Shown: positions 11,503 through 32,458, counted from the first letter of the stretch. The stretch is DNA of 64,000 nt from Bacteroidota bacterium (GCA_021825585.1 JAKAGT010000009.1:90915-154914), one strand, 5' to 3'. The notes: a model not told the origin generated them from the letters alone. A program made the numbers and translations.

Positions 11503-11596
11503 GCCTCCTGCTGCCGTCTGGATGGCTGAGACGCAGGATTTTTGATATAGAAGATTACATATTTAACTAAAACTATAGAATACGTTGGAGGTAACA

Positions 11597-12109: not shown

Positions 12110-12123
12110 GACTCTCAACGGGT

Positions 12124-12148
12124 GGCCGTCACTCCGACAGTGACGGTC
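12124..12148. terminator. Stem-loop between convergent genes (possible bidirectional terminator)
   Basis: CCGTCACT(12126-12133)/AGTGACGG(12139-12146) is a perfect 8-bp stem. No clear U-tract on either strand. Confidence 0.35.
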
Positions 12149-12169
12149 ACTCCTGATTACTAACTGCGC

Positions 12170-12751: not shown

Positions 12752-12955
12752 AGCTACCTCCCTGTGTTAGTTTGTTGACGGATGCAGAAGTGACGACACA
12801 TCTGAATGGGCGCTGAGAGCCTGATGCGAGTCTCAGAACTGGAACAGTGCTCAGCGGGAACATACGAAGTATCTGGCAAATGCACGACCATCTTCCTCAG
12901 GCATATTTAGCCAACTCGTCGAATAAAGTCAACTTCAGACACGGCAGCAAGGCTT

Positions 12956-12985
12956 ACAAAAAGCGGGAGGTTCATTGCCTCCCGC
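12956..12985 (-). terminator. Intrinsic terminator downstream of the 13079 gene
   Basis: GCGGGAGG(12963-12970)/CCTCCCGC(12978-12985) is an 8-bp GC stem. On the minus strand it is followed by TTTTT. Confidence 0.6.
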
Positions 12986-13078
12986 AAAATATTTGGGTTC
13001 TCTGACGTTAGTCGGACTATGTTACTTCATCAGAATTCCCGCCAGATGAAGGCGGGATTAATGAACACATATTCTGAA

Positions 13079-15923: not shown

Positions 15924-17687
15924 TCAAGATAAGCTTCCCTCATAAAGGTCCGTGTATTGTTTGTTGAAGTTATACAATTCATCATGCTTTCCGCTAACTA
16001 TGATCTTTCCGTTGTCCATTAATACCATCTTGTCAACACTCGTTATGGACGATAGTCGGTGACTGATAATTATTGTGGTTTTGTTCTCCATGATTTTTTC
16101 TGTGGCATCCCTGATCAGGCTTTCAGACTGGAGATCAATTGATGATGTAGCTTCATCCAGTACAAGTATCTTCGGATCGAGCAAAAAAACCCTCGCAATC
16201 GAAATCATTTGTTTCTGTCCGCCAGACAGTTGAAAGCCTCTCTCGCCCACTATGGTGTTATAGCCATCGGGCAGGTTGCGGATAAAATTGTCTGCATATG
16301 ACGCTCTGGCAGCTTCGCGCATTTCTTCGTCGCTGGCTTCAAGATTCGCATACCTGATGTTTTCAGCTATAGTTCCACTGAAAACATACGTCTCCTGGGG
16401 CACTATCCCTATTAACCTCCTAAGATCAGTGAGAGAATATTCCCGTATATCTTTACCATCAAGACAGATCCTCCCGCCTTGTGGCTCGTACAACCTCAAT
16501 AGCAGGTAGCCCAAAGTCGTCTTGCCAGACCCGGTTCTGCCAACTATCCCGATTCTGTCGCCGGGCCCAATGTGCAGGCTGAGATGTGCTATTCGAAAGT
16601 TGGCATCTTCTCCTCGATAGCAGAAACTAACATCCTGAAAGAGTACGTCCCCTTTGAACTTATCAGTTGCGCCTACAGTCAGAAGATGGCCTGGGTCGCC
16701 CTCAGCTTGTTGATCCAGTATGTCATATATTCTATCAATCGAGACGATGGCTGACTGAAGATTAGTCAGATATCCAAAGAGCTGAGTCGAAGGGCTGTAC
16801 AGCAGACTTAAGTATCCCACGAATCCGACCAATTGACCGGTTGTCATCCTTCCCGTGATTATGAAATACCCCGCGATTGAAAGAATCGCTATCGGTGCGA
16901 GGCTTTGAACAAATCCGTTGGCTGAACCAGCATAAGTGGATAGGAGCCAATTCTTCTTCGTAAGTTCAATCGCAGCAATTGACTTATCATTGAATCTTGT
17001 GATTTCGTAGTCCTCTTTTCGATAGGCCTTGATGCTCATAACCCCGCTGAGCATTTCTTGTAAGAATCCGCCTACCTTTGACCATTCCTCTTTCCTTGCA
17101 TTATTCACTTTCCTTATTTTGTAGTTAAACAATTTCTGGCTGACCAGGTAGAACGGAATGATTGCAAGAGCGATTGCGGCCAGCGTTCCATTGATCAGGA
17201 AAATCAGAGTTATCCCGAAAATCAAACTCAATAAGCTCTGTACCACGTTCAACGATGAAGTCCCCAATATTGAAACTGCGTCTTCGACGTCTTGAGAAAC
17301 TCGAGAAATGAGGTACCCAGTTTGCTTATCCGAGTAGTAACTAAGTGGAACATGCAACAAATGATTGAACATTCTGGCGCGGAGGGATAGCACTGAATAC
17401 AATTGGAAATTGTTAAGGAAGAAATTCTGGATAAAGCTCGAGAAGGTCTTAAGGAGGATAATTGCTGCCCAAGCAGCGATCAAAACGAAGAACAACTTAG
17501 CATCTCTAGCGGCTAGTGCTTTGTCCACAACCAACATGCTTAGCCATGGCATTGGAAGAGTGAGCAATAGGGAAAAGAGCATAAAGAAACCAGCCAGAAG
17601 AAAGTCTCTTTTCCTGTCCTTAAGAAATTTGACGAAGTTTCTGATTTTTCCCAGCTGTTTACCGTCCAATACATATTCAAAAAACAT
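15924..17687 (-). CDS. ABC exporter, fused permease + ATPase (MsbA/peptide-exporter type, no C39 peptidase domain)
   Basis: Six-TM N-half. Walker A GRTGSGKTT, signature LSGGQKQMISIARV, Walker B ILVLDEATSSID, H-loop IIISHRL. It starts 9 nt after the TonB-receptor stop. Confidence 0.9.
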   Translation of the reverse strand: MFFEYVLDGKQLGKIRNFVKFLKDRKRDFLLAGFFMLFSLLLTLPMPWLSMLVVDKALAARDAKLFFVLIAAWAAIILLKTFSSFIQNFFLNNFQLYSVLSLRARMFNHLLHVPLSYYSDKQTGYLISRVSQDVEDAVSILGTSSLNVVQSLLSLIFGITLIFLINGTLAAIALAIIPFYLVSQKLFNYKIRKVNNARKEEWSKVGGFLQEMLSGVMSIKAYRKEDYEITRFNDKSIAAIELTKKNWLLSTYAGSANGFVQSLAPIAILSIAGYFIITGRMTTGQLVGFVGYLSLLYSPSTQLFGYLTNLQSAIVSIDRIYDILDQQAEGDPGHLLTVGATDKFKGDVLFQDVSFCYRGEDANFRIAHLSLHIGPGDRIGIVGRTGSGKTTLGYLLLRLYEPQGGRICLDGKDIREYSLTDLRRLIGIVPQETYVFSGTIAENIRYANLEASDEEMREAARASYADNFIRNLPDGYNTIVGERGFQLSGGQKQMISIARVFLLDPKILVLDEATSSIDLQSESLIRDATEKIMENKTTIIISHRLSSITSVDKMVLMDNGKIIVSGKHDELYNFNKQYTDLYEGSLS

Positions 17688-17696
17688 TATCCACTC

Positions 17697-20234
17697 CTAG
17701 AAGGAATAACTCACACCTAGCGTAGGAATTAGGCCGTAAAGCAAGTTAGCCCTTCTCATTGGCCTCCCGTTGGCGTCATAGGTGTAAGTGTACGACAGAA
17801 CGTTGCGCCTGTTGAACAGGTTCATCACATCAAGATAGATTTGTAGCGGCTTATGGAACAGAGAATAGCCTTTTGCAATTTTTAAATCAACTCTTTCATA
17901 CGGGGGGTAATGGCTGGCATTTTTATTCCCCGCAACCCACAAGTACATCATTGCAGTTGAATCATAATGGCTCACATAGGGAGTGTATGCATAGCCGCTT
18001 CCATAGAAGAATCTAACGTCCAAAGACCATTTGTTTCCCAAATCAGAAATCACGGCAAGGGAAAGAGTGTGTGTTTGATCTGTGTACCGCGGATAATAAC
18101 CTTCTTTGCTGTCGAGCAATTTTTCTCGCGCAACCAAATAACTGTAGCTCAACAACAAATCTGTGTTGCCCAATGTTTCGTTGTACATTAGATCCATACC
18201 TGTCGCATATCCCTTGGCGTCATTTTGCCTCGTGCCGTATGCCAATTCACCGTCCGAAAGTCTGATCGTTGGAATCATGCTCGAATAATCTTTATAGTAG
18301 AACTCGCATCTGAGATCCATACCTCCTTCAATTTTCTTTTCAAATCCCAGGATGTACTGCACTGCTTTTTCGAAGGCCGTGTTAGTATCAGAGGCGACTG
18401 AGGACCTTAGTTGTTTGTATGTGGGAGGTTCATAATAGATCCCCCACGCAGCACGGATTGTAACTCCGAATGGCCCGGCGTACGACAAACTTGTTCGCGG
18501 CGCAAACCTAGTTTCTTTGTCCATGTCGAAGTAATCTAACCTTATTCCTGCATTAAACATTAGATTGCTTCCTATCTGCGACGTTTGTTGAAAGTACGCT
18601 GCTAAACTGTATGTCGAAGCATTTGTTATCACGGTGTCGTTATATGTCGGATCGGGAGGATAAAGCATGGTTGTTGTATCGGGGAAAAGCGTCACGTTTG
18701 TGGCCAGTATCTGGACTCCGTGCATATTCGGCGCGTCGTCATACAGTATTTTCTTTAGGGTGAATCCCCCGTCGAAATCGAGAAATTGTGACGATTGGAA
18801 ATTCAAGTCCTGGTCAAGACAGATCGTTTTTATCGAGAGGTCATCGATCAAGTTTCTATTATTTGATTGGTATGACCAAAATTGGGGGAATCCGCTGTAT
18901 GTGAGGCTGGTGCTATCCATCAGAATCGCGTGCTCATGTTCGACTTCATTGTAATATGAGGCCGTAGTCAGGGAAAGCAATTTGTCCGACAGCATATTGC
19001 TGGACCTGATCGACACCAAAGAATTCGTATAATTTGCAAGGAAGCTGGAATTGTGTACGGTGGTCTGAGATACGAGCGTCTGCTGTCCATAATAGTTCCA
19101 GTAGTACCCCAACCGGCTATAGCTATTTGAAGGAGATTGGTTAGCGTTGTCTCTTGAGAAAATCACATCTACCTTCAGCTTGTTTAAGTCGCTCAGATTG
19201 TAGTCCATCTGTCCTTGAACATCGTAGTAGTCCAAACTTATAGCAGAAGAGACGCTTAACATTCGCATCAGATAGTCAAGGTAACTTTGCCTAACACCTA
19301 TGATAAACGAACCGTTGCGGCTAACAGGTCCCTCAACCAAAACCGAGAAATCTATTAAGCTCAGATCGACCTTACCTTGGTAATTGTTCCTGTCACCGTC
19401 TTTGTAATCAATCTTCATCATGGAGCTCAGAGCATCTCCGTATTTGACGCTGAACCCTCCCGAACTGAAATCGATACTCTTAACCATGTCAATGTTAAAA
19501 ATCGACATGCTCCCACCTGCCAGTTCTTTTAAATGATCCGGGTTATAAACCTCGACTCCGTTTATCAAAATCAGGTTCTCGTCGGATGTCCCTCCGCGCA
19601 CATTTATCTTATTGCTTACTTCGTTGTCAACGCTTACCCCGGGCAATAACTGCACTGCACGTAGAGGATCTTTCGTCAAACCTGCTAGATCTCTAATCTG
19701 TTGGTTTTTGATTTCAGCCGAGCTTATTCTTCTGGGGTTTGCTTGCTCTGCATAAACGCTTACCTCCTGAAGCAAGAACCCAACAGGGGTCAGTTTAACA
19801 ACTACGGTAGAATCGTTTTTGTGAACGTCGAGCCTTTCTGTCCGGTAGCCGATATACGAGACCAACAGTGTAACTTCTTCATCAGGTAAGGAAATTCTAA
19901 ACTCACCTCTCTCATTTGTTTGAATCACTTTCTTGAAATTCTGAACTGTAACGGTTGCATAGACCAAACTCTGATTTGTCGTGGCATCGATCACTCTACC
20001 ACTGAGAACATGACTTGCTCCTTTACATAACCCTGGATTCAGAAAAAACAAAATGGAAACGACGAACATTCCGCCGCTAAAGAGATATGAAAAGAGCAAT
20101 CCGAGAATTCTGTATTCCTCCGTGGTCTTATAAGATATTGAGGGGTTGATCACGTGTATTACGCGTTTCACAGTAGAACCCGTAAGATCCTGCATACACC
20201 TTTGAAGTTCATTTTTGAATAAGCAGATCCGCAA
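17697..20234 (-). CDS. TonB-dependent receptor with N-terminal carboxypeptidase-regulatory-like domain
   Basis: GRVIDATTNQSLVYATVTVQN...GEFRISLPDEEVTLLVSYIGYRTERLDV (CarbopepD_reg-like). Plug motifs are LLPGVSVDNEVSNKINVRGGTSDENLILINGVEVYNP, followed by a long beta-barrel with a C-terminal ...LGVSYSF. The true start is uncertain; an internal Met giving MFVVSILFFLNPGLCKGAS is possible. Confidence 0.85.
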   Translation of the reverse strand: MRICLFKNELQRCMQDLTGSTVKRVIHVINPSISYKTTEEYRILGLLFSYLFSGGMFVVSILFFLNPGLCKGASHVLSGRVIDATTNQSLVYATVTVQNFKKVIQTNERGEFRISLPDEEVTLLVSYIGYRTERLDVHKNDSTVVVKLTPVGFLLQEVSVYAEQANPRRISSAEIKNQQIRDLAGLTKDPLRAVQLLPGVSVDNEVSNKINVRGGTSDENLILINGVEVYNPDHLKELAGGSMSIFNIDMVKSIDFSSGGFSVKYGDALSSMMKIDYKDGDRNNYQGKVDLSLIDFSVLVEGPVSRNGSFIIGVRQSYLDYLMRMLSVSSAISLDYYDVQGQMDYNLSDLNKLKVDVIFSRDNANQSPSNSYSRLGYYWNYYGQQTLVSQTTVHNSSFLANYTNSLVSIRSSNMLSDKLLSLTTASYYNEVEHEHAILMDSTSLTYSGFPQFWSYQSNNRNLIDDLSIKTICLDQDLNFQSSQFLDFDGGFTLKKILYDDAPNMHGVQILATNVTLFPDTTTMLYPPDPTYNDTVITNASTYSLAAYFQQTSQIGSNLMFNAGIRLDYFDMDKETRFAPRTSLSYAGPFGVTIRAAWGIYYEPPTYKQLRSSVASDTNTAFEKAVQYILGFEKKIEGGMDLRCEFYYKDYSSMIPTIRLSDGELAYGTRQNDAKGYATGMDLMYNETLGNTDLLLSYSYLVAREKLLDSKEGYYPRYTDQTHTLSLAVISDLGNKWSLDVRFFYGSGYAYTPYVSHYDSTAMMYLWVAGNKNASHYPPYERVDLKIAKGYSLFHKPLQIYLDVMNLFNRRNVLSYTYTYDANGRPMRRANLLYGLIPTLGVSYSF

Positions 20235-20257: not shown

Positions 20258-20488
20258 TTATCCGAAATTGATATAGCCGCATTCGCATCCCTGGCATATG
20301 TTGCATGTGTCGCATGCTAAGCCAACGTTACCGCAGCTGCAGGAAACGTTAGCAGCTCCACAGACGTACGTTTGGCATGTGCAACCGCCGCCACCACCAG
20401 TATCACTATTACAAGTGTTGCAGCACGGTGTCGTTGTGAATGTCTCAAGATAACTTACGTCATCATTTAACAATTCAATGCGTTTCAT
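20258..20488 (-). CDS. Cys-rich precursor-like peptide (76 aa, 13 Cys)
   Basis: MKRIELLNDDVSYLETFTTTP-CCNTCNSDTGGGGGCTCQTYVCGAANVSCSCGNVGLACDTCNICQGCECGYINFG. A strong RBS AAGGAGGTGA lies upstream of the ATG (read from the rc of 20489-20510). It sits between the rSAM maturase and the TBDR/ABC genes on the same strand. Confidence 0.75.
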   Translation of the reverse strand: MKRIELLNDDVSYLETFTTTPCCNTCNSDTGGGGGCTCQTYVCGAANVSCSCGNVGLACDTCNICQGCECGYINFG

Positions 20489-20765: not shown

Positions 20766-22208
20766 TCATATTTGGCGCTCAGTTGGTATTTCCTTTCTTC
20801 CCCTTTTGTAAAAATGATAAAGGTTTTCGATTTCCGGTTTACTTGACTTAGCGATACTTGAATACACCATGATTGCTGTTTCAATAACGTGCTTAATCAA
20901 TTCACATCTCATGGGATTAGGAGTAGTCACGTCTTTGTAATAATCTTCGCTCACTGCGATGCAATCCCCGCCACAAAGAAACCTTGCCCAACACGAATTG
21001 CAAGGAACCCGAGAAAACACGTTTGTATTCACGTGTATTTCTTTTTCCCACCGTCGGTCGAAGGTTCCCGCCATAACATTTCCCATCCTGTAAGTACTAT
21101 TGACAAAGCGATGACAGGGGAAAATGTCACCGTTCGCTCCCACCGCTACATAGCCCCTTCCCGCTGCGCAGGAATAGAAATTCTTCCCATTCGCGTTCAG
21201 ATGCTTCAGGAACTTGATGATGTTACTATAACCAAAAAACTCATTTCGGGAAATCTTCCTCATCAGCTCATCTGCGATCAAGTCAATCCTATTTTCGAGG
21301 GCGCGATAATCCTCCGAGGATAGGAACCCTCTACCTGTTGTGCCTTCGGCAGTTTCAGTGTGGACAGAATAAAAACCCATAGCGAGAATATGCAGGATAT
21401 TATCAAAAGCCCTTTCAACTGAATTCGAGGTGATCGTCGTTCTCGCTGATGTTTGATCCTGCTTTGTCTTCCCGAGAAACAGAATGCTTTTCCCCTCAAC
21501 AGTCGGATACGATGGCCTTTTGTTCTTCAAGGGTCTGTTGACATTTTGCGTATCAGCGTCTCCATCTATACTGATTTGTATATTTATTCTCTCACGGTTA
21601 AAGTATTCAATTAGTTCTTCGTTAAGCAGGGTTCCATTTGTGGAAACTGAATAGCGGACCTCCTTATCTGCAGCTTTAGCTTTCTCATTTCCGTACAATA
21701 CCAACGCCTTCAAACCAACCATGTTTAACAATGGCTCTCCGCCGAAGAAGACCACGCCAACCCTTTTCGACTTTCCTGATTTTTCAATCAAGAAATCAAT
21801 GGTTTTCCTCCCCACTTCCGGTCTCATAAACCCTCTTTTCCCTCGGAAAGCACCCTGATCCGCGAAACAGTAGACGCATCGCATATTGCAATCTTGAGAT
21901 AAGATCAGGTCCATATTTCTTATTTCATATTCTGAATACTCAAAGGTGGGATCCTCAAACTCAAAAGGCTTTTCTGCGATAAGCCGTGATTCTTTCAGTT
22001 CAGTATAAGCGACCTCGATATCTTCCGCAGGGTAAGAATTTCTCAGCGCTGACAAGACTTCTTCCCTCTTTTTCAAGTTACTGGCGCCGAGGATTTGGAA
22101 GGCTAGTTCATCGACCCGAAATACTCGACACGTTTGCACGTCCAATAGCAGGTTCTTCCCGTTCTTCTTGAATAGGTGTAACTCCGGCAGGCAAGTTAGC
22201 TCATCCAC
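20766..22208 (-). CDS. Radical SAM / SPASM-domain peptide maturase (anSME-like) with N-terminal RRE-like segment
   Basis: CxxxCxxC at SQDCNMRCVYCF. Also GGEPLL, STNGTLL and ISIDG. The 7-Cys SPASM reads CAAGRGYVAVGANGDIFPCH...CNSCWARFLCGGDC...RCE. GTG start 22208 is preceded by AAGGAGG. It overlaps the upstream gene by 13 nt. Confidence 0.9.
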   Translation of the reverse strand: MDELTCLPELHLFKKNGKNLLLDVQTCRVFRVDELAFQILGASNLKKREEVLSALRNSYPAEDIEVAYTELKESRLIAEKPFEFEDPTFEYSEYEIRNMDLILSQDCNMRCVYCFADQGAFRGKRGFMRPEVGRKTIDFLIEKSGKSKRVGVVFFGGEPLLNMVGLKALVLYGNEKAKAADKEVRYSVSTNGTLLNEELIEYFNRERINIQISIDGDADTQNVNRPLKNKRPSYPTVEGKSILFLGKTKQDQTSARTTITSNSVERAFDNILHILAMGFYSVHTETAEGTTGRGFLSSEDYRALENRIDLIADELMRKISRNEFFGYSNIIKFLKHLNANGKNFYSCAAGRGYVAVGANGDIFPCHRFVNSTYRMGNVMAGTFDRRWEKEIHVNTNVFSRVPCNSCWARFLCGGDCIAVSEDYYKDVTTPNPMRCELIKHVIETAIMVYSSIAKSSKPEIENLYHFYKRGRKEIPTERQI

Positions 22209-24028
22209 AATACCTCCTTTAATTTTAAGGTCAGTAAGAGCAAATAATTGATTACCCTGACTGGAAAATTGAGAACAATTAAGAAGTGTTGCGAATTTAG
22301 TTCAAACTTTTGTGCCATAGCGAAATTCTTAACCGCATCCGAGAAGCTAAAATGATGCCTGGCCAGTTGCCGAACAAAGCTGAATCCATATTTTATGAGA
22401 AAGCTCAAACCCCAGGCCAAAATTGTATAGAGTGCGATAATCTTGGCGGCCGATTTTACCGGAAGACTTTTGGTCGGGATGAAATTCACCATGCTGTGAT
22501 TCTTAAAATGTGTTATCCTGCCAATTATTTCACTTGGCATAACCTCTTGGAAAAAGCCGTTGTCACCCTTTTCGTATATGAAACTGTTTCCCAGAAGCTT
22601 GATTCTTATGATCAGCCGGTGAGTTATGATCCTGTTGTTTCGTATGTAGGAAAAAATGTCGCCAGTTTTTAACTGGTTAGGATGCAAAAACTCGATTTTC
22701 AACTCTGTGCTCGATATAAACAAAGGAAACATGCTCTTGCCAACAGTAGACAAGACAACCGCATCTTTCGAGAGAGTATCCCCTTCATACTGAAACTGTG
22801 GGCTATGTCTTTTCAGAAAATCTATGTTCTTTTGCATAAGCGACCTAATTGCAGCATCCCTATCCGCGGATAGCAGCGCTGCTGCTTTAATGTTCCCTCT
22901 TATGTTGTCGCATCTTGTCTCAGGAATGCTTGCCGGACGGTGAAGATCATCCTCCCACTGAAGAATGCACCCACCACCACATATGGATATAGCCCAACAA
23001 GTCGTGCATTCTTTTCTGTCGTAAACCGCTGCTTTTGCAAATTGGTTCTGAATCGGCTTGTCATGGTCTGATTTTTCAATTGTCCCAGCCAGGTGCCTGG
23101 ACGACCTGATCAATCGGTGACACGGGAATATTTCCCCCTCTTTAGAAACAGCCCAGTACCATCTCCCTGCCCCGCAAGTAAAAGTCTTAGGAATGGAGGA
23201 GTTCAATGTTTCCGCATGACTTAGTATCTCAGTAATACTAAGTCCTAAACCGATACAATGGCCGTCATTCAAAATCTCGTTAAATAAATTACATTCCCCA
23301 TAACCAAACTGGATGAGCCTTATCCCTACCCGTCTTAATATATTGATGGTCTCCATTACCAAATTCTTTTGCATCCCCACATCTTCAATTCTGACACTAA
23401 CTACACGGTTAGAGGTTAATCGTCGCACAGCATCCGGTATTCTTCCCAATGCACCACGCAGATCGTCTCCGTACCTGAACAAGAGTTTCACTTCGTAGTT
23501 GTTCGACACAATAAAATCGGCCAATTGCCGGTCAACAAGTTCGATCGGGACTTGAAACAAAAACCGGTAGGAATGTTTTCTACTTCCTATCAATTCTTCA
23601 CAGAGGCGGTTCATTGAAGAAAGGATTGCCGGGTTCCTTAGGTTAAGAGTCAGATGAACCGCACGGCCAAATTGCGGCTCAAAGAAACCAACTGCTTTTT
23701 TGACAAGAGCAGTTGCACTTAAATCATTCTCAGGCAAATCCACATAAAGCGCGCTGACGAATAGAGGCTTCCATCTTATTTCGTCTTTCTTATTGATCCC
23801 GCCGAGGAACTCTTTGAGTTCATCTATGGCATCGTGCAACTCGCCAATATTGAATCTGCCTTCGAGGGTTGAGATTGCTCTATCTATATCCAAGGCCCCG
23901 CCTTCACTTAGATCCAGTAGTTCTTTAATTGCAGGGCTGAAACGAATCGTTGCAGGAAAGTCCGTCAGTATACCAACATTAACTTCTCTTGAGCCCGCGA
24001 TCTCGATATTGGGAATCTTAATCTTCAT
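22196..24028 (-). CDS. Pseudo-radical-SAM/SPASM protein fused to S26 (SipW/archaeal-type) signal-peptidase-like domain and C-terminal TM helices
   Basis: No CxxxCxxC anywhere in the 610 aa. The SPASM is intact: CGAGRWYWAVSKEGEIFPCH...CTTCWAISICGGGC...RCD (nt 22910-23176). The S26B-like block is VGKSMFPLF...LKTGDIFSY...RIITHRLI...IYEKGDNG (nt 22505-22759), followed by hydrophobic AAKIIALYTILAWGLSFLIKYGF and HFLIVLNFPVRVINYLLLLTL. Confidence 0.75.
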   Translation of the reverse strand: MKIKIPNIEIAGSREVNVGILTDFPATIRFSPAIKELLDLSEGGALDIDRAISTLEGRFNIGELHDAIDELKEFLGGINKKDEIRWKPLFVSALYVDLPENDLSATALVKKAVGFFEPQFGRAVHLTLNLRNPAILSSMNRLCEELIGSRKHSYRFLFQVPIELVDRQLADFIVSNNYEVKLLFRYGDDLRGALGRIPDAVRRLTSNRVVSVRIEDVGMQKNLVMETINILRRVGIRLIQFGYGECNLFNEILNDGHCIGLGLSITEILSHAETLNSSIPKTFTCGAGRWYWAVSKEGEIFPCHRLIRSSRHLAGTIEKSDHDKPIQNQFAKAAVYDRKECTTCWAISICGGGCILQWEDDLHRPASIPETRCDNIRGNIKAAALLSADRDAAIRSLMQKNIDFLKRHSPQFQYEGDTLSKDAVVLSTVGKSMFPLFISSTELKIEFLHPNQLKTGDIFSYIRNNRIITHRLIIRIKLLGNSFIYEKGDNGFFQEVMPSEIIGRITHFKNHSMVNFIPTKSLPVKSAAKIIALYTILAWGLSFLIKYGFSFVRQLARHHFSFSDAVKNFAMAQKFELNSQHFLIVLNFPVRVINYLLLLTLKLKEVLWMS

Positions 24029-24034
24029 TGTCTC

Positions 24035-26233
24035 TCAGAAATTGTCACACGGCTGGATGTAAGGGGTCTGCCTTACGTCCTGGTTTACGACACCAATTTT
24101 CCCAAACCGGCCTGCCACTGCCTCCTCAGCAAGCGTGCGGTAACGATCACAAAAGGATCTTTCGAATGTGCTTCTGCCGCTATCCAGGACCCTTTCCATG
24201 AAAAGACACCCGCCTGCACAGAGATTTATTAGCCAGCAATTACCGCACCGTGGTTTGCTCTTTACATCGTTCTCAACATATTCAATTTGCGATTTCAGCA
24301 ACCCGTCATCATTGCTTCCCATTGGGCTGATTCCCGCCTTTGCAAATAAGTGACAAGGATAGTATTTGCCGTCGGGAGAAATAACGACGTAGGATTTACC
24401 CGCATTGCAAAAATAATTGTACGGTTTATGGTCCATCAGCCTCCATTCAATTCCTCGAACAATGCCAATGTCCTTTCTGGGTGATTCGGCCGGAAGCAAC
24501 TCTTTGCCGAAGGGCTCTTCTGAACAAAACGGTTGAGTACATATTTGGAAATGATTAGATTGGGCCTCTCCAAAAGCTGGTGCCAAGTCTTTCAATAGTG
24601 CCTGATTTTCTGTCTGTGGAACAAGAAGGTTGATGACAAAACGTTTTTCATCTTCGCCCTCGAAATGGCTTCTAATTGATCTGAGGAGTTTTCCATAATC
24701 TCCATCTTTTGAAGTAAGCCCCGCACACAACGAGGCTGCATCAATATTTATACTGATACTTACGGTCTTAAATAACTTCCCTGAGAGTTTTTTTATGTAA
24801 TCACGGATCTTCACCAACAACTCTATTATCGATTCGTCTATAACATCTCCCAAATACAAATGGATAAACAAATCAGTTATGTAACCGGACCTTATAAACA
24901 AAAGATCAATCGCTTGCTTTGCTATCTCGAGCTGAATGACATCTGCATTACCGTTTCTATTATTCGATATTAGAATCCCTAGGCTTACCAGTACTTCTCC
25001 CCGGTTCTTGTCTTTTTCCCTTACAGATATCTCGTTCATCGATTTACCCGCTGATGACTGAACTTCTTTCAAAACCCCGATTCTTGTCAATTCGTTAAAC
25101 ATTTCAGTGATTTCATCAACACTCAATCCTAACTCTCTCTCCATGATATGAGAATCTTCCAAGGCTCTATGTCTTTCAAGAAATCGGACAAAATCGTACA
25201 TCCTCTGGTCTATCCTAGTCGCCAATTTGTGGTCGATTTGATAAAGAAAGAATTCAGCCCCCCTCTGAAACATGTGTATTTGCGAAAGGACTAAGCCCGG
25301 GTCAAATGTCTTTTCGATTGGAGAGAGTTGTGCTGACACGGAGCTTGTCAAAGGTTGCCTGCGATCTGTTTCAAGGAAATTTTCATTCTCTTTGATTTTC
25401 TTTTGAATGAAATTCTTTAATGCAAAACACTTAAGCTCCTCTGCCATGAGCACTGCCTTACTGTAATATTCGATGCTCTCGGAAAGGTGCTGTTCGATCA
25501 GGTCGCTTGCCTTCAGGTAGTTTTCAATCTGCTCCTGATCATCAGCTAAACCTAACCGGTCGTAAATCTTAAAAAGGAAATATGTATAGTTTTTGTTCGA
25601 AAAGTCTTCTCTCCAGTCCACCACATCGTCATACAGCTGGTATCCAATATGGTAATTACCCACCAACTCAGAGAAGGCCTCAATTTTTCCTTCTTCTTCT
25701 CCCGCGAGACATGCGCCTGCAGCAGAGATTTTCAATAAAGAAAACTTATGCCCGCAATTAATTAGATCCCTGTTTTCAAACCTTGCTACTTTCCCAAAGT
25801 GTAGTCGTTTTTCCCACAACGTCGCGACAACAAACTCGTTCAAGTATTTTTCGAAAAGAGCCCAGAAATAATCATTAGAGCGGAAAGCTCTCTGGTACTC
25901 TTTCATCCATTTATAATAGATGATGTTTGACACGAGGAGAGTTTCTGAAATTCTGGTCGGATCGCTTTCTTGCTGGTCTATGATCTTATCCTGCGCTAAT
26001 ATGTAGAGGGCTCCAAATAAATTGCCGAGAGAAAGTGCCCTTAGGATATTTAGGTCTATTTGTTTGGCAAACGACTCTGCGACCCAATAGGGGAAATCGA
26101 TTATTATATCCGGTTTAAGGGATATGAGTTTTCCTGAAGCGGTTGCGAAAACTCCGTCAAAGGCTAGCCTGTTCATTTCAATTCTGTACCGATCGCCAAC
26201 CAGTTTATTTTCATCACGAAGATTTATCATCAT
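24035..26233 (-). CDS. Three-part fusion: polyprenyl-synthase-like domain + RRE-like winged-helix segment + pseudo-radical-SAM/SPASM domain
   Basis: The N-domain pattern HKFSLLKISAAGACLAGEEEGKIEAFSELVGNYHIGYQLYDDVVDWRED matches the trans-IPPS KT...G.aFQ..DDxxD region, and the first motif is degenerate (ILAQDKIID). The middle segment RIDQRMYDFVRFLERHRALEDSHIMERELGLSVDEITEMFNELTRIGVLKE is PqqD/RRE-like. The C-terminal SPASM is CNAGKSYVVISPDGKYYPCH...CGNCWLINLCAGGC...FCD. There is no CxxxCxxC. I prefer start ATG 26233 (an ATGA overlap with the upstream stop) over the track start 26284. Confidence 0.7.
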   Translation of the reverse strand: MMINLRDENKLVGDRYRIEMNRLAFDGVFATASGKLISLKPDIIIDFPYWVAESFAKQIDLNILRALSLGNLFGALYILAQDKIIDQQESDPTRISETLLVSNIIYYKWMKEYQRAFRSNDYFWALFEKYLNEFVVATLWEKRLHFGKVARFENRDLINCGHKFSLLKISAAGACLAGEEEGKIEAFSELVGNYHIGYQLYDDVVDWREDFSNKNYTYFLFKIYDRLGLADDQEQIENYLKASDLIEQHLSESIEYYSKAVLMAEELKCFALKNFIQKKIKENENFLETDRRQPLTSSVSAQLSPIEKTFDPGLVLSQIHMFQRGAEFFLYQIDHKLATRIDQRMYDFVRFLERHRALEDSHIMERELGLSVDEITEMFNELTRIGVLKEVQSSAGKSMNEISVREKDKNRGEVLVSLGILISNNRNGNADVIQLEIAKQAIDLLFIRSGYITDLFIHLYLGDVIDESIIELLVKIRDYIKKLSGKLFKTVSISINIDAASLCAGLTSKDGDYGKLLRSIRSHFEGEDEKRFVINLLVPQTENQALLKDLAPAFGEAQSNHFQICTQPFCSEEPFGKELLPAESPRKDIGIVRGIEWRLMDHKPYNYFCNAGKSYVVISPDGKYYPCHLFAKAGISPMGSNDDGLLKSQIEYVENDVKSKPRCGNCWLINLCAGGCLFMERVLDSGRSTFERSFCDRYRTLAEEAVAGRFGKIGVVNQDVRQTPYIQPCDNF

Positions 26234-27195
26234 ATCAGATCCGTGGCAATATGCTTCTTGTACTTCTGCAGAGCTTCCAGACAAACTGCGGTGGTTATTT
26301 CCTCGGAACCGTCACCTCCAAAGGGATACAGTATTTCCATGGGCCAACATCCTCTGTCTCTGTCGCAACGGTCCATCAAATATTCTATCCCTCTTTCGAC
26401 ACATGTGCCGAATGCGGCACAGTCCATTAATGCTACAAGTGCAAATGCTGTCTCCAGGGTATTCCCCCACCCTCCGTTTTCATCCTGGACAAATCTTAAG
26501 TAGCGAACAATTGAGCCTCGTGCCTCTTGAAGCTCATCCGCTCTATCGACGGCGAATGCCCTGGAAACAAAACACGAAAATATTTGAGGTGAAAAGTACC
26601 ATCTTTGCGAGTTCTGCGTTTGAAGATCGTGAGACTCTCTGTTCAACCAATCGATCACTTCTTTTGTCAGAAAAGATTTATGCATCAAACTAAACAGCCA
26701 AAGGATATTGGCATTGACGGCCGCGTCGAAATCATTCTCCGAGATTGGTGAACCACCAACCCAGGTGCGGAATAGTTTTGTCACTTCATCCCTCTGGCCA
26801 AGTAGCTTTTCAGGGACCGCGAGATCGTTCATGACCCCTAGCTCATAAAGCACGGAAAGACAACACGACGTTGTATCCAGATCCAATGGCAGCTCTGAAC
26901 CGATTCCAAAGTACCTCCAATAGCTCTCTTCTTTGTTCTGAATAATAAACTCGATCGCTTTCTGCTTTATGCCGTTCAACCTGTTGGAATCGTCCAAGAA
27001 GGAAATTGAGTGGAGGACAAGAGCAGTTGGAAAAACTGTGCTACGGTAAGTTTTCATTAATTGGGAATTACTGACGAAAGAATAGTTTGCAATTTCCCCC
27101 CATGGCAGTTGATTGTCATAGATGAAATCTATCCCCTGATCAATCAATGCTTGGACGGTCTCAATCGATGCGCAACGATCACTGTTCCCAAACAC
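26230..27195 (-). CDS. Prenyltransferase / squalene-hopene-cyclase-repeat (alpha/alpha-toroid) protein
   Basis: QW-like repeat FVQDENGGWGNTLETAFALVALMD. LPLDLDTTSCCLSVL resembles the class II cyclase DxDDTA region, here as DxDT. GTG start 27195 is preceded by AGGAGA. Confidence 0.7.
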   Translation of the reverse strand: MFGNSDRCASIETVQALIDQGIDFIYDNQLPWGEIANYSFVSNSQLMKTYRSTVFPTALVLHSISFLDDSNRLNGIKQKAIEFIIQNKEESYWRYFGIGSELPLDLDTTSCCLSVLYELGVMNDLAVPEKLLGQRDEVTKLFRTWVGGSPISENDFDAAVNANILWLFSLMHKSFLTKEVIDWLNRESHDLQTQNSQRWYFSPQIFSCFVSRAFAVDRADELQEARGSIVRYLRFVQDENGGWGNTLETAFALVALMDCAAFGTCVERGIEYLMDRCDRDRGCWPMEILYPFGGDGSEEITTAVCLEALQKYKKHIATDLI

Positions 27196-27337: not shown

Positions 27338-27973
27338 TCAAGCCGTGAAAGTGTCACGAAAATAAATCGCAAATCTTATCAGTTCAGACAGCCCGCTCAA
27401 GTGCGTTTTTTCTATTATGTTTGTTCGATGACAGTCAACCGTTCTCTTGCTGATATAAAGTCGCAAACCTATTTCTTTACTTGAGTATCCTAAGCCAATA
27501 AGTCCAAGGATTTCCTTTTCTCTAGCTGACAAAGTCTGAATTTTATCATTCCATGGCCTATTCTTACCCGTTTCATCAGTCTTAGATTCATCGCATCGTT
27601 GGTTGCAGAGTGCCCATATCGGTCTCGGTATTGATTCTGGTCGCCCGCTAATCCGAAGTCCTCTTCTACAGAGAACAGTTACCCGTTTGTCGTCAACTTC
27701 AGGACAGCCTCCATAAAGACACAATTCAGATAAGACTAAGAGCTGAGCGAAATCGTATGGGAGGATCCTATTGATGGTGTTCACGATACTCTGATAATTC
27801 CGGTCGTATGATAAATTCAGGAAAACAACTTCATTCCGGTCTTTGTTAAGGTCGCTGACAGAGCGTAGAACTTTTATTACACGATATCCGTTTGCCACCA
27901 AGTATCCCCTTATTGCCTCCGCAACTATTTCATTCTCATCGATAAGAATTATGCTTATGTTTTTCCTCGACAC
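27338..27973 (-). CDS. LuxR/FixJ-type transcription regulator with atypical receiver-like N-domain
   Basis: C-terminal HTH LSAREKEILGLIGLGYSSKEIGLRLYISKRTVDCHRTNIIEKTHL. The N-terminal ISIILIDENEIVAEAIRGYL is receiver-like. The expected phospho-Asp position after beta-3 reads VVFLNLS. Confidence 0.8.
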   Translation of the reverse strand: MSRKNISIILIDENEIVAEAIRGYLVANGYRVIKVLRSVSDLNKDRNEVVFLNLSYDRNYQSIVNTINRILPYDFAQLLVLSELCLYGGCPEVDDKRVTVLCRRGLRISGRPESIPRPIWALCNQRCDESKTDETGKNRPWNDKIQTLSAREKEILGLIGLGYSSKEIGLRLYISKRTVDCHRTNIIEKTHLSGLSELIRFAIYFRDTFTA

Positions 27974-28055: not shown

Positions 28056-28691
28056 TTACCCAGTGCAAAAGGTCTTGAGTTCACAACTCGCAAACCGGTA
28101 AATGTATATCTTTGCAATTGTGGGAGCACTATGCAGCCCGGTCACAAGGAAAAGAGTCGGTCCCATGGCACCACGAGAAAATGTGGAGGGGTTCGGAAAC
28201 ATGGTTCGCCCGCAGCAATTCTTGTTTCTGGATTTTTGGCCCACCATGTTGCACAAGGAGGGAACAAAGAGAGAGATAACAGAGCACGACGCCGCGACCT
28301 GCAGTGGAGGGCCTCTCCTCATCACTGTGTCATTCGTGCTGACGTTTGTTGCCAGGAACCCATACCCCGTCACTTCGTCAACATTGTGAAGGCCAATGAG
28401 ACCATTCCCATCTACGACACCCCCTGAAGGATCCGGGTTCAACTTAGGAGGATGACGGAGTGCAGGAAGCAAGATATCTCTCCATACTTCTCCGTTAGGG
28501 GGTAAAGGATTAGGAGTCCATGTTGGGGATAGGATAATAATCACCTTGGCTAGGCTCCGGCACGGAAGTGCCTCAGCTTGAGAAAATTCCCCACAAACGG
28601 TTAAGCCCAATATTAGAAACAACAGAACATGAGAGAAGACGCCTCGTTTTCCCAGTCCAATTTCCCTTTCGATCAGCATCTCTTTGTGCAC
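28056..28691 (-). CDS. Hypothetical protein with N-terminal hydrophobic segment (weak call)
   Basis: 211-aa ORF with the signal-like stretch VFSHVLLFLILGLTVCGEFSQAEA. No recognisable motif, and it may be non-coding. Confidence 0.3.
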   Translation of the reverse strand: MHKEMLIEREIGLGKRGVFSHVLLFLILGLTVCGEFSQAEALPCRSLAKVIIILSPTWTPNPLPPNGEVWRDILLPALRHPPKLNPDPSGGVVDGNGLIGLHNVDEVTGYGFLATNVSTNDTVMRRGPPLQVAASCSVISLFVPSLCNMVGQKSRNKNCCGRTMFPNPSTFSRGAMGPTLFLVTGLHSAPTIAKIYIYRFASCELKTFCTG

Positions 28692-29364: not shown

Positions 29365-29955
29365 ATGGTTACCAGCGATTGGAAGCTTCTCGACTCGTAT
29401 CTGCAGCATTGCGGTTACGAGAGACACCTTGGTGCCTTAAGCCTTAAAGCCTACGGGATTGATCTCAGGCAATTCCTCCTCTTCATAAGCGGAAGATCGG
29501 ATTTCCATCAGGTTGACAAAGAGACACTCAAGGCTTACTTGAAACACCTGTTCGGCGTTCCACTCAGAGAGTCAAGCGTAAAAAGGAAGATTACCTGCCT
29601 CAAGGGTTTCTTCGCATTCCTCGAAGCTGAGCAAGTCATTGAGGAAAGTCCCTTCCACAAAATGAAATTCTCGATCAAGATCCCGAGGAGATTGCCTGAA
29701 GTCATGAACATAAGGGATGTGACAGAGCTTATCACCCTTGCGAAGCAGAACCTTGAAAAGAGGAAATCTACGACTCGCGAAAAGATTGATCTATCATCCT
29801 GCGTTGAACACGGAGATCTTGTGGCTTTTCAGGATCTCATCATTATTGAGCTTCTTTTTGCAACCGGCATGAGGGTGAAAGAACTATCAAGCCTCAATGT
29901 GGGCGACATAGACCTCGTCAGAAGATTAAACGATATAGGCTCCTGCACGGGATGA
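29365..29955 (+). pseudogene. Tyrosine recombinase (XerC/D-like integrase), 3'-truncated
   Basis: N-terminal SAM-like core-binding domain (LSLKAYGIDLRQFLLFI..., VKRKITCLKGFFAFLEAEQVI). The catalytic domain begins (ELLFATGMRVKELSSLNVGDIDL, containing the first catalytic Arg) and then ends after about 20 more codons. The H-R-Y part is missing. Confidence 0.7.
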
Positions 29956-30390: not shown

Positions 30391-32458
30391 ATCCTGTTAG
30401 CCTATTGAACCCTCGTCAATCCCGACTCCTGCCGGCAGGAGTCGGGAGAGGTTTTCCCTCATACGGCTTTCCTGATACACATCATATGCTGGCGAAAGCC
30501 GACATGTCCGATAGTCAGAGTATAAACCGAGAGTGCCATAGATATAATCCGAGGAGATTCTTCCTCCCCAGCCATATCCACGTCTCCCACGATGCCTTTG
30601 GATCACCCGTCTCACACGCTTGTTCACAAAGTTCCGGACATCTTTCAGTGTGTCACTACTGTGCCCAAGTCGGAAGTATCCAACCCAACCACGGAGAAAC
30701 CGATTGACATCCTGCACTTGGTCTTTCACTCGCTTTGCTCTCGCGTGGTGTACCAATTGACGGATTCTCTCCCGGCACCGTTGCTGACTTTTCGGACTCG
30801 GCGACACAAGTATCAACCGCGTCCCTGTTTTCCTGCTCCTCACATTCGAGAACCGGAAGCCAAGAAACTCCACGTTTGCTCCCTCTTCCAAACGAAGCCT
30901 CCGTGTCTTCTCTTTGTTCAGCGTCAGCCCTAAGCGTTCGAGGTAGTGTTCAAGTAGGGCTATCCCTGTATCCAGTTCTCTTTGTGCAAGTAGTATCATA
31001 TCGTCCGCGTAGCGTACCAAGTGGATTGACCCTTTGCTTATCGCTCCGAGTCCGCTCCGCTTGAATATCTGGTCGATAGGATTCAGGTATATGTTTGCCA
31101 ATAATGGACTTATTACTCCTCCCTGTGGTGTCCCTCGCTTGCTCTGCTTGTGCTGTCCATCTTCGATATATCCAGAGCTCAGCCAGAGCTTGATTACGTG
31201 GAGTATCTGCTTATCCACTATTCTCCGCGCTATCAGCTTCATCAGCTTATGGTGTTCGACCGTGTCAAAGTACTTCTCAAGGTCTACATCATAAACTTCA
31301 GCACATCCCCAGTTCAGGTACTTGCCCGTCTCTGACGAGGTCTCGCCTAAAGGCGGATATATTTCCCGTACCGCATCGTGCGCACCCTCGTTCGGTCTGA
31401 ACCCGTGACTACTTTCGGCAAAGTCTGCCTCAAATATAGGTTCGAGTATTAACAAGAATGTAGTCTGCACTATGCGATCCCGAACAATAGGAATCCCCAA
31501 TGGTCGTTTCTTGCCATTGGCTTTCGGGATATATACTCGCCTTACTGGCTGCGGTTTGTACCGCCGTTGCTTCATCTCAAGCTGGAGTCCGGCAAGATAT
31601 TCCTCAAGACCTCGTTCCTCTATCATCGCGCAGGTCTCTCCGTCTATCCCGCTCGTTCCACCGTTGGCTTTCACCTTGTCGTAGACTCCGTCTGAGTCTA
31701 CGGACTCTGACGAGCGGTAGGCTTCTGCCAGCACATCCGTGCGATATGTTTTGTCGTACAGACTGTAGAATCTGAACTTCGGCTCTGCTTTCGCCTTCTC
31801 ATACAGCTTCCTCTGTAACTCCTGGAGATTTCCGGTACTTGTTAGCTCTCGCAATGTACTCTCCTTCTGCGCCATAGGCGCATCAGCTTCTGGCTGAGTT
31901 CCTTTGGTTGCTGTGTATCAGTAGAGACCCTTCCCTCCGCTCTGCTTTCACAGAACATCCTAAGTACTACGGTCTCATCCGCCATTGCCGCTCCAACATT
32001 ATATCTGTTATATGATGCGGCATGCCGTGAACGGCACCTGCCGGCTTCCTCCGCTTTCGTTTCCTTATACGGAAGCTCTTCTCTCACCTTCTCGGTGGGG
32101 CCGGCGAGGACTTCCCGAGTTCCCTTCCTCACTTTCTGACCATGTCGCCGCTCACACCCCGGAGACGCCGTGTACCGCTCATCCTCTGTACTTGGAACAC
32201 AGTTCTGACTTCGCCTATAAAATAGAGGCTCGTCCATCTCTGTCATCTTTACGAGGCTACCTTCGCGTTCACTCACGTTGCAACCTGGTCATTCGCGTTG
32301 CGTCCTTTCAGACTACGTTGTCGAGTCGCTTAGTATGAGTCCGTTTCCAAACTCATACCGACCCCTCGCTATGGCGCCAAAGGCGCCATCCGGAACCTTG
32401 CAGGGAGATCGCCTCTCCCTCCTCATCCAGATAGTTAAGGAACAGTTTAGCTCGGCAC
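30391..32458 (-). mobile_element. Group II intron (ribozyme + IEP); boundaries approximate
   Basis: On the minus strand, GTGCCGAGC begins at 32458, immediately after the TGA (32461-32459) of the upstream gene. About 583 nt of structured, ORF-poor sequence precedes the RT ORF. The candidate 3' end ...GGCTAACAGGAT (AY terminus) is at about 30391, with a 10-11-bp hairpin CCCGACTCCTG/CAGGAGTCGGG just upstream. Total length is about 2.07 kb. Confidence 0.7.
30397..31875 (-). CDS. Group II intron reverse transcriptase/maturase (no endonuclease domain)
   Basis: RT motifs RVYIPKANGKKRPLGIPIVRDRIVQ, DLEKYFDTVEH, GTPQGGVISPLLANIYL, VRYADDMILL, LTLNKEKT and FLGFRF. Domain X is RFLRGWVGYFRLGHS. There is no HNH/En region. 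Confidence 0.9.
   Translation of the reverse strand: MAQKESTLRELTSTGNLQELQRKLYEKAKAEPKFRFYSLYDKTYRTDVLAEAYRSSESVDSDGVYDKVKANGGTSGIDGETCAMIEERGLEEYLAGLQLEMKQRRYKPQPVRRVYIPKANGKKRPLGIPIVRDRIVQTTFLLILEPIFEADFAESSHGFRPNEGAHDAVREIYPPLGETSSETGKYLNWGCAEVYDVDLEKYFDTVEHHKLMKLIARRIVDKQILHVIKLWLSSGYIEDGQHKQSKRGTPQGGVISPLLANIYLNPIDQIFKRSGLGAISKGSIHLVRYADDMILLAQRELDTGIALLEHYLERLGLTLNKEKTRRLRLEEGANVEFLGFRFSNVRSRKTGTRLILVSPSPKSQQRCRERIRQLVHHARAKRVKDQVQDVNRFLRGWVGYFRLGHSSDTLKDVRNFVNKRVRRVIQRHRGRRGYGWGGRISSDYIYGTLGLYSDYRTCRLSPAYDVYQESRMRENLSRLLPAGVGIDEGSIG

Follow-up and report, generated by a model that had tools for sequence, protein, structure and literature searches.

A probable stand-alone class II terpene cyclase and its translationally coupled, putative prenyltransferase partner in a predicted ribosomal-peptide operon of a Bacteroidota bacterium

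Why should a gene resembling those of terpene cyclases lie within an operon that has the appearance of a peptide maturation pathway? The question is raised by a 321-residue protein encoded on the minus strand, at 26230..27195, of a 64,000-nucleotide stretch of DNA from a Bacteroidota bacterium (GCA_021825585.1 JAKAGT010000009.1:90915-154914; hereafter the window). A first-pass annotation had described this protein as a stand-alone member of the squalene-cyclase/prenyltransferase fold, and had put forward three possible outcomes: a hybrid peptide-terpenoid product, prenylation of cysteines, or a LanC-like cyclization. The comparative analysis reported here indicates that the protein is, with high confidence, the beta domain of a class II terpene cyclase, and that the cluster to which it belongs probably makes a peptide carrying a cyclized terpene.

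The cyclase gene is the second of a co-directional set of minus-strand genes (all window coordinates below are on this strand unless stated otherwise); it starts with a GTG codon, with AGGAG 7 nt upstream. Direct reading confirmed the open reading frame (ORF) and the features that the first-pass annotation had noticed, i.e. a DLDTT motif, a QW-like motif and an ATGA overlap with the next gene, together with the absence of the LanC motifs GxxHG, WCxG and CHG. The first motif, D105-L-D107-T-T (26869..26883), is a DxDTT variant of the DxDD general-acid motif of class II cyclases, and the QW-like stretch runs from R226 to W243 (RGSIVRYLRFVQDENGGW, comprising Q237DENGGW243; 26467..26520). The overlap (26230..26233) reads ...ATATGATG...: the three bases of the cyclase TGA (26232..26230) are shared with the next gene, whose ATG occupies 26233..26231.

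Sequence and fold comparisons both bear out a stand-alone alpha/alpha barrel of the squalene-cyclase type. At the profile level, the QW region was matched by Pfam SQHop_cyclase_C (PF13243; E=1e-4, its 21.9 bits falling short of the gathering score, 26.1) and by the squalene cyclase model TIGR01787 (E=1.8e-6); the similarity to squalene cyclases covers only about 40 residues, and TIGR01507 scored 20 bits for a cut-off of 431. A phmmer search of all PDB sequences gave as best match the drimenol synthase AsDMS (9mhs; E=2e-6): residues 39-310 of the query aligned with residues 252-523 of AsDMS, which form its terpene-cyclase beta domain, and LPLDLDTTS aligned with FPDDLDTTS, placing D105-L-D107-T-T opposite D321-L-D323-T-T. 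Close relatives of the 321-residue protein carry the Pfam domain AstC-like_C (PF28380). The AlphaFold2 (AF2) model, computed from a five-sequence alignment, had a pLDDT of 83 and a pTM of 0.87. Its top Foldseek match was again AsDMS (E ~1e-10, TMq 0.73), followed by two monodomain 'squalene-hopene cyclases', 8pak and 8paj, from Cystobacter and Archangium, by the merosterolic acid synthase MstE, and then by a beta-gamma drimenyl-diphosphate synthase, diterpene cyclases, and squalene-hopene and oxidosqualene cyclases (SHC/OSC). Class II cyclases occupied ranks 1-28 of the list and several more places within the top 50.

The other identities suggested by this fold class, i.e. a protein prenyltransferase beta subunit, a LanC protein, or a thioester-containing-domain (TED) or glycoside-hydrolase (GH) toroid, were rejected on the profile scans and the fold ranking. 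Indeed, Pfam and NCBIfam scans of the 321-residue protein gave no match at E<=0.1 to PF00432, PF13249 or PF05147/LanC, and no LanC, farnesyltransferase (FTase) or geranylgeranyltransferase (GGTase) structure was found among the top 50 Foldseek matches. Alkylation of cysteines in the manner of a prenyltransferase beta subunit is further disfavored by the absence of a zinc-ligand pattern in the protein, and scans of the operon with the same profile collections detected no prenyltransferase alpha-subunit gene; a LanC-like role finds neither motif, nor Pfam match, nor fold match. Complement TED, GH105 and AprG structures appeared lower in the fold list (TED and GH105 from rank 29 on), and a weak Pfam match to TED_complement was recorded (E=0.006). 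As the best matches are class II cyclases rather than unrelated toroids, and a catalytic pocket is conserved, the cyclase assignment stands.

AsDMS provides a reference for the active site. Its general acid is D323 (D333 in full-length numbering), which is hydrogen-bonded to Y427 (PMC12232559, PMC12365925), and the D331A/N, D333N and Y427F substitutions (Y427 being Y417 in the other numbering) abolish activity (PMC12365925). R378, R380, R425 and R513, along with the tyrosines Y373 and Y426, hold the diphosphate of its substrate, farnesyl diphosphate (FPP), and F281, F318 and other residues stabilize the cations (PMC12232559, PMC12365925); in SsDMS, the diphosphate is bound via Mg2+ (PMC12232559). 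The DxDTT motif is the signature of the AstC/drimenol-synthase branch (PMC9128629, PMC5024094).

We mapped these residues onto the window cyclase by means of one pairwise HMMER alignment (about 22% identity), the residue numbers being counted along the printed alignment. D331, D333 and Y427 pair with D105, D107 and Y200. Y200, the counterpart of the tyrosine hydrogen-bonded to the general acid, closes a Q197-R198-W199-Y200 loop (26596..26607), in which R198/W199/Y200 pair with R415/Y416/Y417 (other numbering). The aromatic pocket positions F281 and F318 (full-length numbering) correspond to F55 and Y92. By contrast, three of the four diphosphate-binding arginines are replaced, R378 by E153, R380 by D155 (R368 and R370 in the other numbering) and R513 by F292, only R425 being kept, as R198; the tyrosines of the diphosphate site, Y373 and Y426, correspond to W145 and W199. 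In place of the arginine loop of AsDMS, the window cyclase has an acidic loop, E153-N-D-F-D157...V160-N-A-N163 (26707..26739), which bears a family-wide (N)DxDxxVNAN signature. From this alignment, the catalytic machinery appears to be conserved and the AsDMS mode of holding the diphosphate does not, and the arginine losses would fit a substrate other than a free prenyl diphosphate held as in AsDMS. Confidence in the AF2 model is low for residues 151-153 (pLDDT <50) and 195-200, which would agree with these loops being mobile and lying at the pocket mouth.

AsDMS (PDB 9mhs, 9m7d) is the best match in both sequence and fold. The window cyclase has in common with it and with fungal AstC (PF28380) the DxDTT motif and an active site contained in a single beta domain, and with AsDMS also the D/D/Y catalytic triad and several of the pocket's aromatic residues. 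The identity is nevertheless only about 20-23%, and the genetic context is a ribosomal-peptide operon instead of drimane biosynthesis. AsDMS and AstC also carry an N-terminal HAD-like phosphatase domain, for which no Pfam or NCBIfam match was obtained in the 321-residue protein. Because this domain is absent and the arginine cluster is lost, the window cyclase is not a member of the HAD-TC-beta enzymes.

The conserved residues are those of a whole family. A profile built from the 321-residue protein and four relatives was used for an exhaustive search of representatives at 50% identity, which retrieved 2530 of them at E<=1e-3; with the limit set at E<=1e-30, the number is 224. The majority are stand-alone proteins of 300-360 residues. 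Conservation was counted over the window protein and its 152 best family matches (n=153). D105 is invariant (153/153) and D107 nearly so (147/153), which, together with the alignment of the DLDTT motifs with AsDMS, upholds the earlier reading of this segment as a class II general-acid region. At position 108, D is found in 123 sequences and T in 14, i.e. the canonical DxDDT dominates. The tryptophans W93 (146/153), W145 (141/153) and W284 (136/153), the acidic-loop residues D157 (135/153), N161 (149/153) and N163 (146/153), and Y200 (128/153) are also widely kept. Judging from these alignments, the window cyclase represents a small branch reading DxDTT and E-N-D-x-D within what is predicted to be a large, little-characterized group of beta-only class II cyclases.

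The gene overlapping that of the cyclase encodes a protein of 732 residues (24035..26233) that begins with MMINL. Its N-terminal domain (25205..26233) can be assigned with moderate confidence to the trans-isoprenyl-diphosphate-synthase (IDS) fold and is accordingly referred to as IDS-like, or prenyltransferase-like. It contains the motifs Q81-D82-K-I-I-D86 (25976..25993) and Y-Q199-L-Y-D202-D203-V-V-D206-W-R-E-D210 (25604..25642), and D82xxxD86, K163, K168 and Q199..D203xxD206-W..D210 are invariant in eight IDS-like homologues. The AF2 model of residues 1-343 had an overall pLDDT of 66, the core being better predicted; each of the 50 highest-ranking PDB structures in Foldseek was a trans-IDS enzyme or an IDS-like prenyltransferase, including the tryptophan prenyltransferase Ord1 and MoeN5 (best E 2e-4, TMq up to 0.62). 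Searches of PDB and Pfam with the single sequence and with a profile gave matches to polyprenyl and terpene synthases that were located at both Asp-rich motifs and were non-significant (E 0.03-0.5), so that the fold assignment rests on the AF2 model and Foldseek. Chain-elongating synthases possess an Arg-rich stretch after the first motif, which was not noticed in the IDS-like domain. Note that word-indexed homologue searches retrieved four relatives for the cyclase and one to three for the IDS-like domain, and both AF2 alignments are therefore shallow; a scan of metagenome contigs yielded a single distant locus.

The C-terminal ~400 residues of the 732-residue protein (24035..25240) are of another kind: they form a paralogue of radical S-adenosylmethionine (rSAM)/SPASM peptide maturases that is devoid of the CxxxCxxC motif of the SAM cluster and has kept the SPASM cysteines. 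The comparison with the maturase family by hhalign gave a probability of 99.9% (E=3e-31, 375 columns), with a gap at CxxxCxxC, and the NCBIfam SPASM model TIGR04085 scored 42.9 bits, above its cut-off of 27. The paralogy is full-length, i.e. it includes the N-terminal stretch of the maturase. In such maturases, this stretch binds the leader peptide (RiPP recognition element, RRE); profiles for RRE and PqqD gave no match here.

The ATGA overlap and the fold search together support the proposed translational coupling of the cyclase to a protein with an isoprenoid-synthase fold at its N-terminus. Stoichiometric co-production of the two proteins, as expected from the overlap, is plausible, and the existence of natural fusions between the two domains makes it more so. 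Such fusions occur in both domain orders: P0097 has an IDS-like domain (residues 22-302) followed by a cyclase domain (338-644), while in P0128 and P0152 the cyclase comes first. Moreover, the cyclase and IDS-like genes are adjacent or near each other in seven independent loci of Bacteroidota and Chloroflexota, and analogous stop/start overlaps between them were found in L003 (TGATG), L004 (TAATG) and, with the gene order reversed, L067 (ATGA); the two genes of L003 hence overlap as well. This pairing, the overlaps and the fusions constitute strong comparative evidence that both proteins work on one common intermediate of the pathway, probably in physical contact.

The company kept by the pair points to peptides. 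The same cluster recurs in L001/L002, from an uncultured Bacteroidetes genome (60-61% identity), and in L004, from a metagenome-assembled genome (MAG) of Bacteroidota (38%). The Anaerolineae clusters L005 and L007 run from an rSAM/SPASM maturase through an NHLP/'Frankia_peptide' precursor (core ...GCDWICYGYKWG) and a stand-alone IDS-like protein to a B12-rSAM enzyme and, last, the cyclase. In four further Chloroflexota loci (L035, L067, L084, L087) the IDS-like gene and the cyclase gene are adjacent, with an NHLP/Frankia_peptide precursor beside the pair in L067 and a leader-like ORF of 70-72 residues between the two genes in the others (L035 ~9750..9960, L084 5014..5232, L087 6871..7083). This ORF is conserved (...ALLAKLKNDTAATLHSFGIDDPHAV...HLLGHLRSGPG) and has the look of a leader of the NHLP/Nif11 type followed by a very short core, free of Cys and Trp; a large regulator of the guanylate-cyclase/AAA_16 type precedes the set in these three loci. 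In L001, the closest relative (10945..13151; Bacteroidetes MAG OY969888), the IDS-like/SPASM gene is split into ORFs of 81 and 653/661 residues that overlap out of frame, owing either to a frameshift or to an assembly error.

In the window itself, a 76-residue ORF (20258..20488; MKRIELLNDDVSYLETFTTTP-CCNTCNS...GYINFG; in full MKRIELLNDDVSYLETFTTTPCCNTCNSDTGGGGGCTCQTYVCGAANVSCSCGNVGLACDTCNICQGCECGYINFG) is, from its sequence and position, a predicted precursor of a peptide that is made on ribosomes and modified after translation (RiPP). It contains 13 Cys, 3 Tyr and no Trp, and homologous precursors occupy the same position in L001, which has two such genes (72 and 77 residues) where the window has one, and in L004. 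Their alignment shows a conserved leader and a core in which C36, Y41, C43, C50 and C70 are invariant. Next to it, at 20766..22208, lies the gene of a 480-residue radical SAM/SPASM peptide maturase resembling those of SCIFF, PapB and ranthipeptides (Pfam Radical_SAM, Fer4_12 and SPASM; the matches to TIGR03974 (SCIFF), E=1e-92, and to the PapB family, E=9e-75, do not reach the equivalog cut-offs). Its CNMRCVYC motif (21867..21890) is intact.

The remaining gene between the maturase and the 732-residue protein, at 22196..24028, encodes a 610-residue protein whose residues 1-413 are again an rSAM/SPASM paralogue without CxxxCxxC (hhalign probability 99.8% against the maturase, with the SPASM cysteines and the N-terminal stretch kept); they are followed by a domain resembling SipW/archaeal-type signal peptidase I and by a hydrophobic C-terminal tail. 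The peptidase-like domain displays GKSMFP, THR and GDN boxes and matches TIGR02228 (E=1.6e-6, below the cut-off), which makes the protein a candidate leader peptidase. BLASTP of the 732- and 610-residue proteins against the maturase detected the SPASM region only, the full-length homology requiring profile-profile comparison. The window thus holds two CxxxCxxC-less maturase paralogues fused to different enzyme domains, one signal-peptidase-like and the other IDS-like.

Precedents exist for several parts of this arrangement. MstE (PDB 6sbb/6sbg) and the 8pak/8paj proteins are, like the window cyclase, stand-alone beta-only class II cyclases, of about 340-360 residues, and match it in fold (TMq 0.68-0.72, E 1e-7 to 2e-10; identity about 16%). 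MstE cyclizes a prenyl chain previously attached to a non-diphosphate head group, which is the mode that we propose for the window cyclase, although its acceptor is a dihydroxybenzoate prenylated by another prenyltransferase, not a peptide, and its motif reads DxD. Ribosomal peptides bearing enzymatically cyclized terpenes were first described in 2024. According to a review of the work of Hubrich et al. (2024), ChrPC combines a trans-IDS-like P domain with an MstE-like C domain, NctPC combines an ABBA-type P domain with the same kind of C domain, and each of the two enzymes attaches a prenyl group from C10-C20 donors to a peptide Trp before cyclizing it (PMC13290415).

The likeness to the window would be that of a peptide prenyltransferase (trans-IDS-like in ChrPC) and an MstE-like cyclase operating in a RiPP pathway, the comparison being based on the published summary. 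On the same basis, there are four differences: ChrPC and NctPC are fused proteins, whereas in the window the two activities would be borne by separate, ATGA-coupled genes, with fused relatives (P0097, P0128, P0152) existing elsewhere; the window IDS-like domain is fused to an rSAM/SPASM paralogue without CxxxCxxC; the window precursor is Cys-rich and SCIFF/ranthipeptide-like, with its own intact rSAM maturase; and this precursor offers no Trp, the residue modified by the characterized enzymes. The Trp prenyltransferases ComQ, PalQ and Ord1 have in common with the window domain the IDS alpha-fold and a Gln before an intact DDxxD second motif, but the first motif of the window domain is reduced to DxxxD, the rSAM/SPASM paralogue is fused to it and its acceptor is likely not Trp. 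As regards SHC and OSC (PF13243/PF13249), the window cyclase resembles them by its QW-like repeat, its DxDD-type general acid and its beta-domain fold; it is however about half the size of SHC (~630 residues), has neither the gamma domain nor the membrane-binding region, and has a sub-threshold Pfam score. By analogy, it would work like MstE or the C domain of ChrPC; it is not an SHC. The pairing of peptide prenylation and cyclization is already known; the new elements are the split genes, the fusion to an rSAM paralogue and the Trp-free, Cys-rich substrate. We found no report, in the literature searched, combining a terpene cyclase, SPASM and a precursor peptide, nor one describing this architecture.

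On balance, we slightly favor a pathway in which the IDS-like domain would transfer a prenyl chain to the peptide and the 321-residue cyclase would then cyclize it. Brought to the Cys-rich precursor by its maturase-paralogue module, the IDS-like domain would take the chain from a prenyl diphosphate and attach it to the peptide. The pendant chain would then be bound in the aromatic-lined barrel of the cyclase, where D107, held by D105 and Y200, would protonate the terminal C=C bond, so as to trigger a cationic cyclization after which the peptide would bear a terpene of one or several rings. Cross-links, probably thioethers, would be added by the intact rSAM/SPASM enzyme, the SipW-like domain would remove the leader and the ABC transporter would export the product. 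We infer this scheme, including the peptide as prenyl acceptor, the acceptor residue, the chain length, the order of the two reactions and every chemical step, from what is observed in silico: the fold, the conserved catalytic motif, the coupling of the genes, the conserved occurrence of the two domains together or as fusions, and the setting among ribosomal-peptide genes. The hybrid peptide-terpenoid product raised by the first-pass annotation fits the comparative evidence, with the pair recurring next to precursors and as fusions, and the published precedent.

Several observations weigh against this scheme. The IDS-like call is based on a medium-confidence model (pLDDT 66), on Foldseek E-values of 2e-4 or worse and on non-significant sequence matches, and a dedicated prenyl-diphosphate synthase is missing from the cluster. 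Mg2+-diphosphate could be bound by the acidic NDxD loop that the cyclase shares with its family, and this would instead agree with a prenyl diphosphate as substrate. The metatranscriptomes of the same study contain none of the sampled locus words, and no RNA runs with the locus were found. Finally, the precursor has no Trp, nor do three of the four homologous precursors, only one of the four having one, while, according to the review, all characterized IDS-like peptide prenyltransferases act on Trp (PMC13290415). A more specific version of the proposal, in which the cyclized terpene would sit on a non-Trp residue (a Cys thiol or the invariant Tyr41) of an rSAM-cross-linked Cys-rich peptide, with the IDS-like enzyme recruited by the CxxxCxxC-less maturase module, is accordingly offered as a tentative suggestion, on which we would not bet at even odds.

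The most serious rival reverses the order of the two reactions: the cyclase would convert free FPP or geranylgeranyl diphosphate (GGPP) into a cyclic diphosphate of the drimenyl/copalyl type, which the IDS-like domain would ionize before moving the terpenyl group to the peptide. This is the class II-then-class I sequence of labdane-type pathways, and the end product would be the same. AsDMS, the closest solved relative, does use free FPP, the cyclase gene does precede the IDS-like gene, as the cyclase domain does in the P0128 and P0152 fusions, and the conserved acidic E/N-D-x-D loop at the AsDMS diphosphate site could hold Mg2+-diphosphate, in line with the use of Mg2+ for binding in SsDMS. 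Class II diterpene cyclases are reported to have an EDxxD-like Mg2+/diphosphate motif. Yet the window cyclase has lost three of the four diphosphate-binding arginines of AsDMS and no alternative basic cluster was identified in their stead; the opposite arrangement, with the IDS-like part ahead of the cyclase, also exists (P0097 fusion, L067 gene order); and prenyl transfer comes first in MstE and, according to the review, in ChrPC and NctPC. We regard the reverse order as rather unlikely, at about one chance in five.

The other two rivals leave out either the peptide or the cyclization, and both are unlikely. The cyclase might make or modify a free lipid, terpenoid or meroterpenoid, that has nothing to do with the peptide; its place beside RiPP genes would then reflect co-regulation or two products of one island. 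Indeed, in ~26-30 of 80 loci holding more distant homologues, the cyclase is accompanied by a UbiA prenyltransferase, glycosyltransferases and an ABC transporter, with no precursor peptide apparent (the small ORFs of these loci were not screened). In the window, however, the coupled partner carries a whole peptide-maturase paralogue, Pfam and NCBIfam scans revealed no UbiA, glycosyltransferase or other lipid gene in the operon, and the pair is conserved beside precursors in two phyla; we consider this explanation improbable. Alternatively, the 321-residue protein could be a toroid of another sort, alkylating Cys like LanC or a prenyltransferase beta subunit, or binding a peptide or lipid without catalysis, as a TED- or GH-like scaffold. 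The shared fold class, the TED_complement match, the TED and GH105 structures from rank 29 on and the Cys-rich substrate speak for it. Against it stand the missing LanC and PF00432 matches, the missing LanC motifs and the absence of LanC and FTase-beta from the top 50 folds, already mentioned, as well as the conservation, across hundreds of relatives, of the catalytic D-x-D and Tyr, for which a scaffold would have no need. This last reading is the least credible of all, and we give it very little weight.

Prenylation of the peptide followed by cyclization, which remains our preferred pathway, concerns the window and its relatives; the cyclase family at large is not restricted to peptides, as the UbiA-associated homologues indicate. 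The loci of that type (which include L008, L011, L013, L016-L018 and L021-L031, and come from Pedobacter, Wocania, Hymenobacter and Acidobacteriota, among others) contain stand-alone DxDDT cyclases of about 350 residues, GT1 and GT2 glycosyltransferases and an ORF with matches to acyltransferase as well as P450 domains, to which a DegT aminotransferase is sometimes added; they look like an uncharacterized pathway to a glycosylated cyclic (mero)terpenoid. Other homologues are fused, on either side, to a sulfotransferase domain (Sulfotransfer_3/4; L006 1163..3019, P0032). RiPP contexts are found among the more distant homologues too: in a Rhizobium sp. MAG (L009, 8113..13284), a Nif11-leader precursor ending in ...VPMTYTLSACY lies upstream of the cyclase homologue, which has an unannotated 370-residue protein on one side and a fused E1-like/YcaO cyclodehydratase on the other, and on the short L010 contig the cyclase is followed by a similar YcaO. 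The 370-residue protein, for which no Pfam or PDB match was obtained, adjoins the cyclase in six loci, including one of a Methanoregulaceae archaeon (L019). The family thus accompanies prenyltransferases of different kinds, as expected for cyclases acting on chains that have already been transferred.

The rest of the operon comprises transport and regulatory genes. Downstream of the precursor gene are those of a TonB-dependent receptor (17697..20234; CarboxypepD_reg, Plug and barrel in Pfam), also present in L001 and L004, and of an ABC transporter with fused membrane and ATPase domains (15924..17687; Pfam), likely an exporter, which follows the receptor in L001 as well. Directly upstream of the cyclase gene, at 27338..27973, is a regulator of the LuxR/GerE family (Pfam GerE E=8e-14), conserved upstream in L001. 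A scan for promoters and terminators found sites no more numerous than in shuffled sequence. Proteins with type IX secretion system (T9SS) sorting domains are encoded nearby and, along with the closest relatives, assign the organism to Bacteroidota; the locus occurs in metagenomes from mine drainage, tailings, sediment and groundwater.

The GC content drops to ~42-47% over roughly 15-30 kb around the cyclase gene, compared to ~53% in the flanks. Just outside the cluster lies a group II intron (30397..32398), consisting of a reverse transcriptase/maturase ORF (30397..31875; RVT_1, GIIM) and an RNA part (Rfam group-II-D1D4-6, 32147..32398). Beside it, on the plus strand (29365..29955), is a phage-integrase N-terminal domain followed by only the first part of the catalytic domain, which looks truncated. 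The intron, the integrase fragment and the GC drop suggest that the cluster sits on or beside a mobile island. A 211-residue ORF between the regulator and the integrase fragment (28056..28691) has no Pfam match and may not be a real gene.

If the more specific proposal were true, the product would be a hybrid of a terpenoid and a peptide of the ranthipeptide/sactipeptide type, and its formation would involve the first non-Trp acceptor for an IDS-like peptide prenyltransferase. More generally, the operon and its Bacteroidota and Chloroflexota relatives would extend terpene-peptide chemistry to separately encoded prenyltransferase/cyclase pairs, to rSAM-cross-linked peptides and, probably, to acceptors other than Trp. 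They also raise the possibility that an rSAM/SPASM maturase paralogue devoid of CxxxCxxC has been reused as a substrate-recruiting module for an unrelated enzyme. Finally, the occurrence of the 2530-member cyclase family in RiPP, UbiA/glycosyltransferase and sulfotransferase-fusion contexts bears on the evolution of the terpene cyclase domain and on genome mining.

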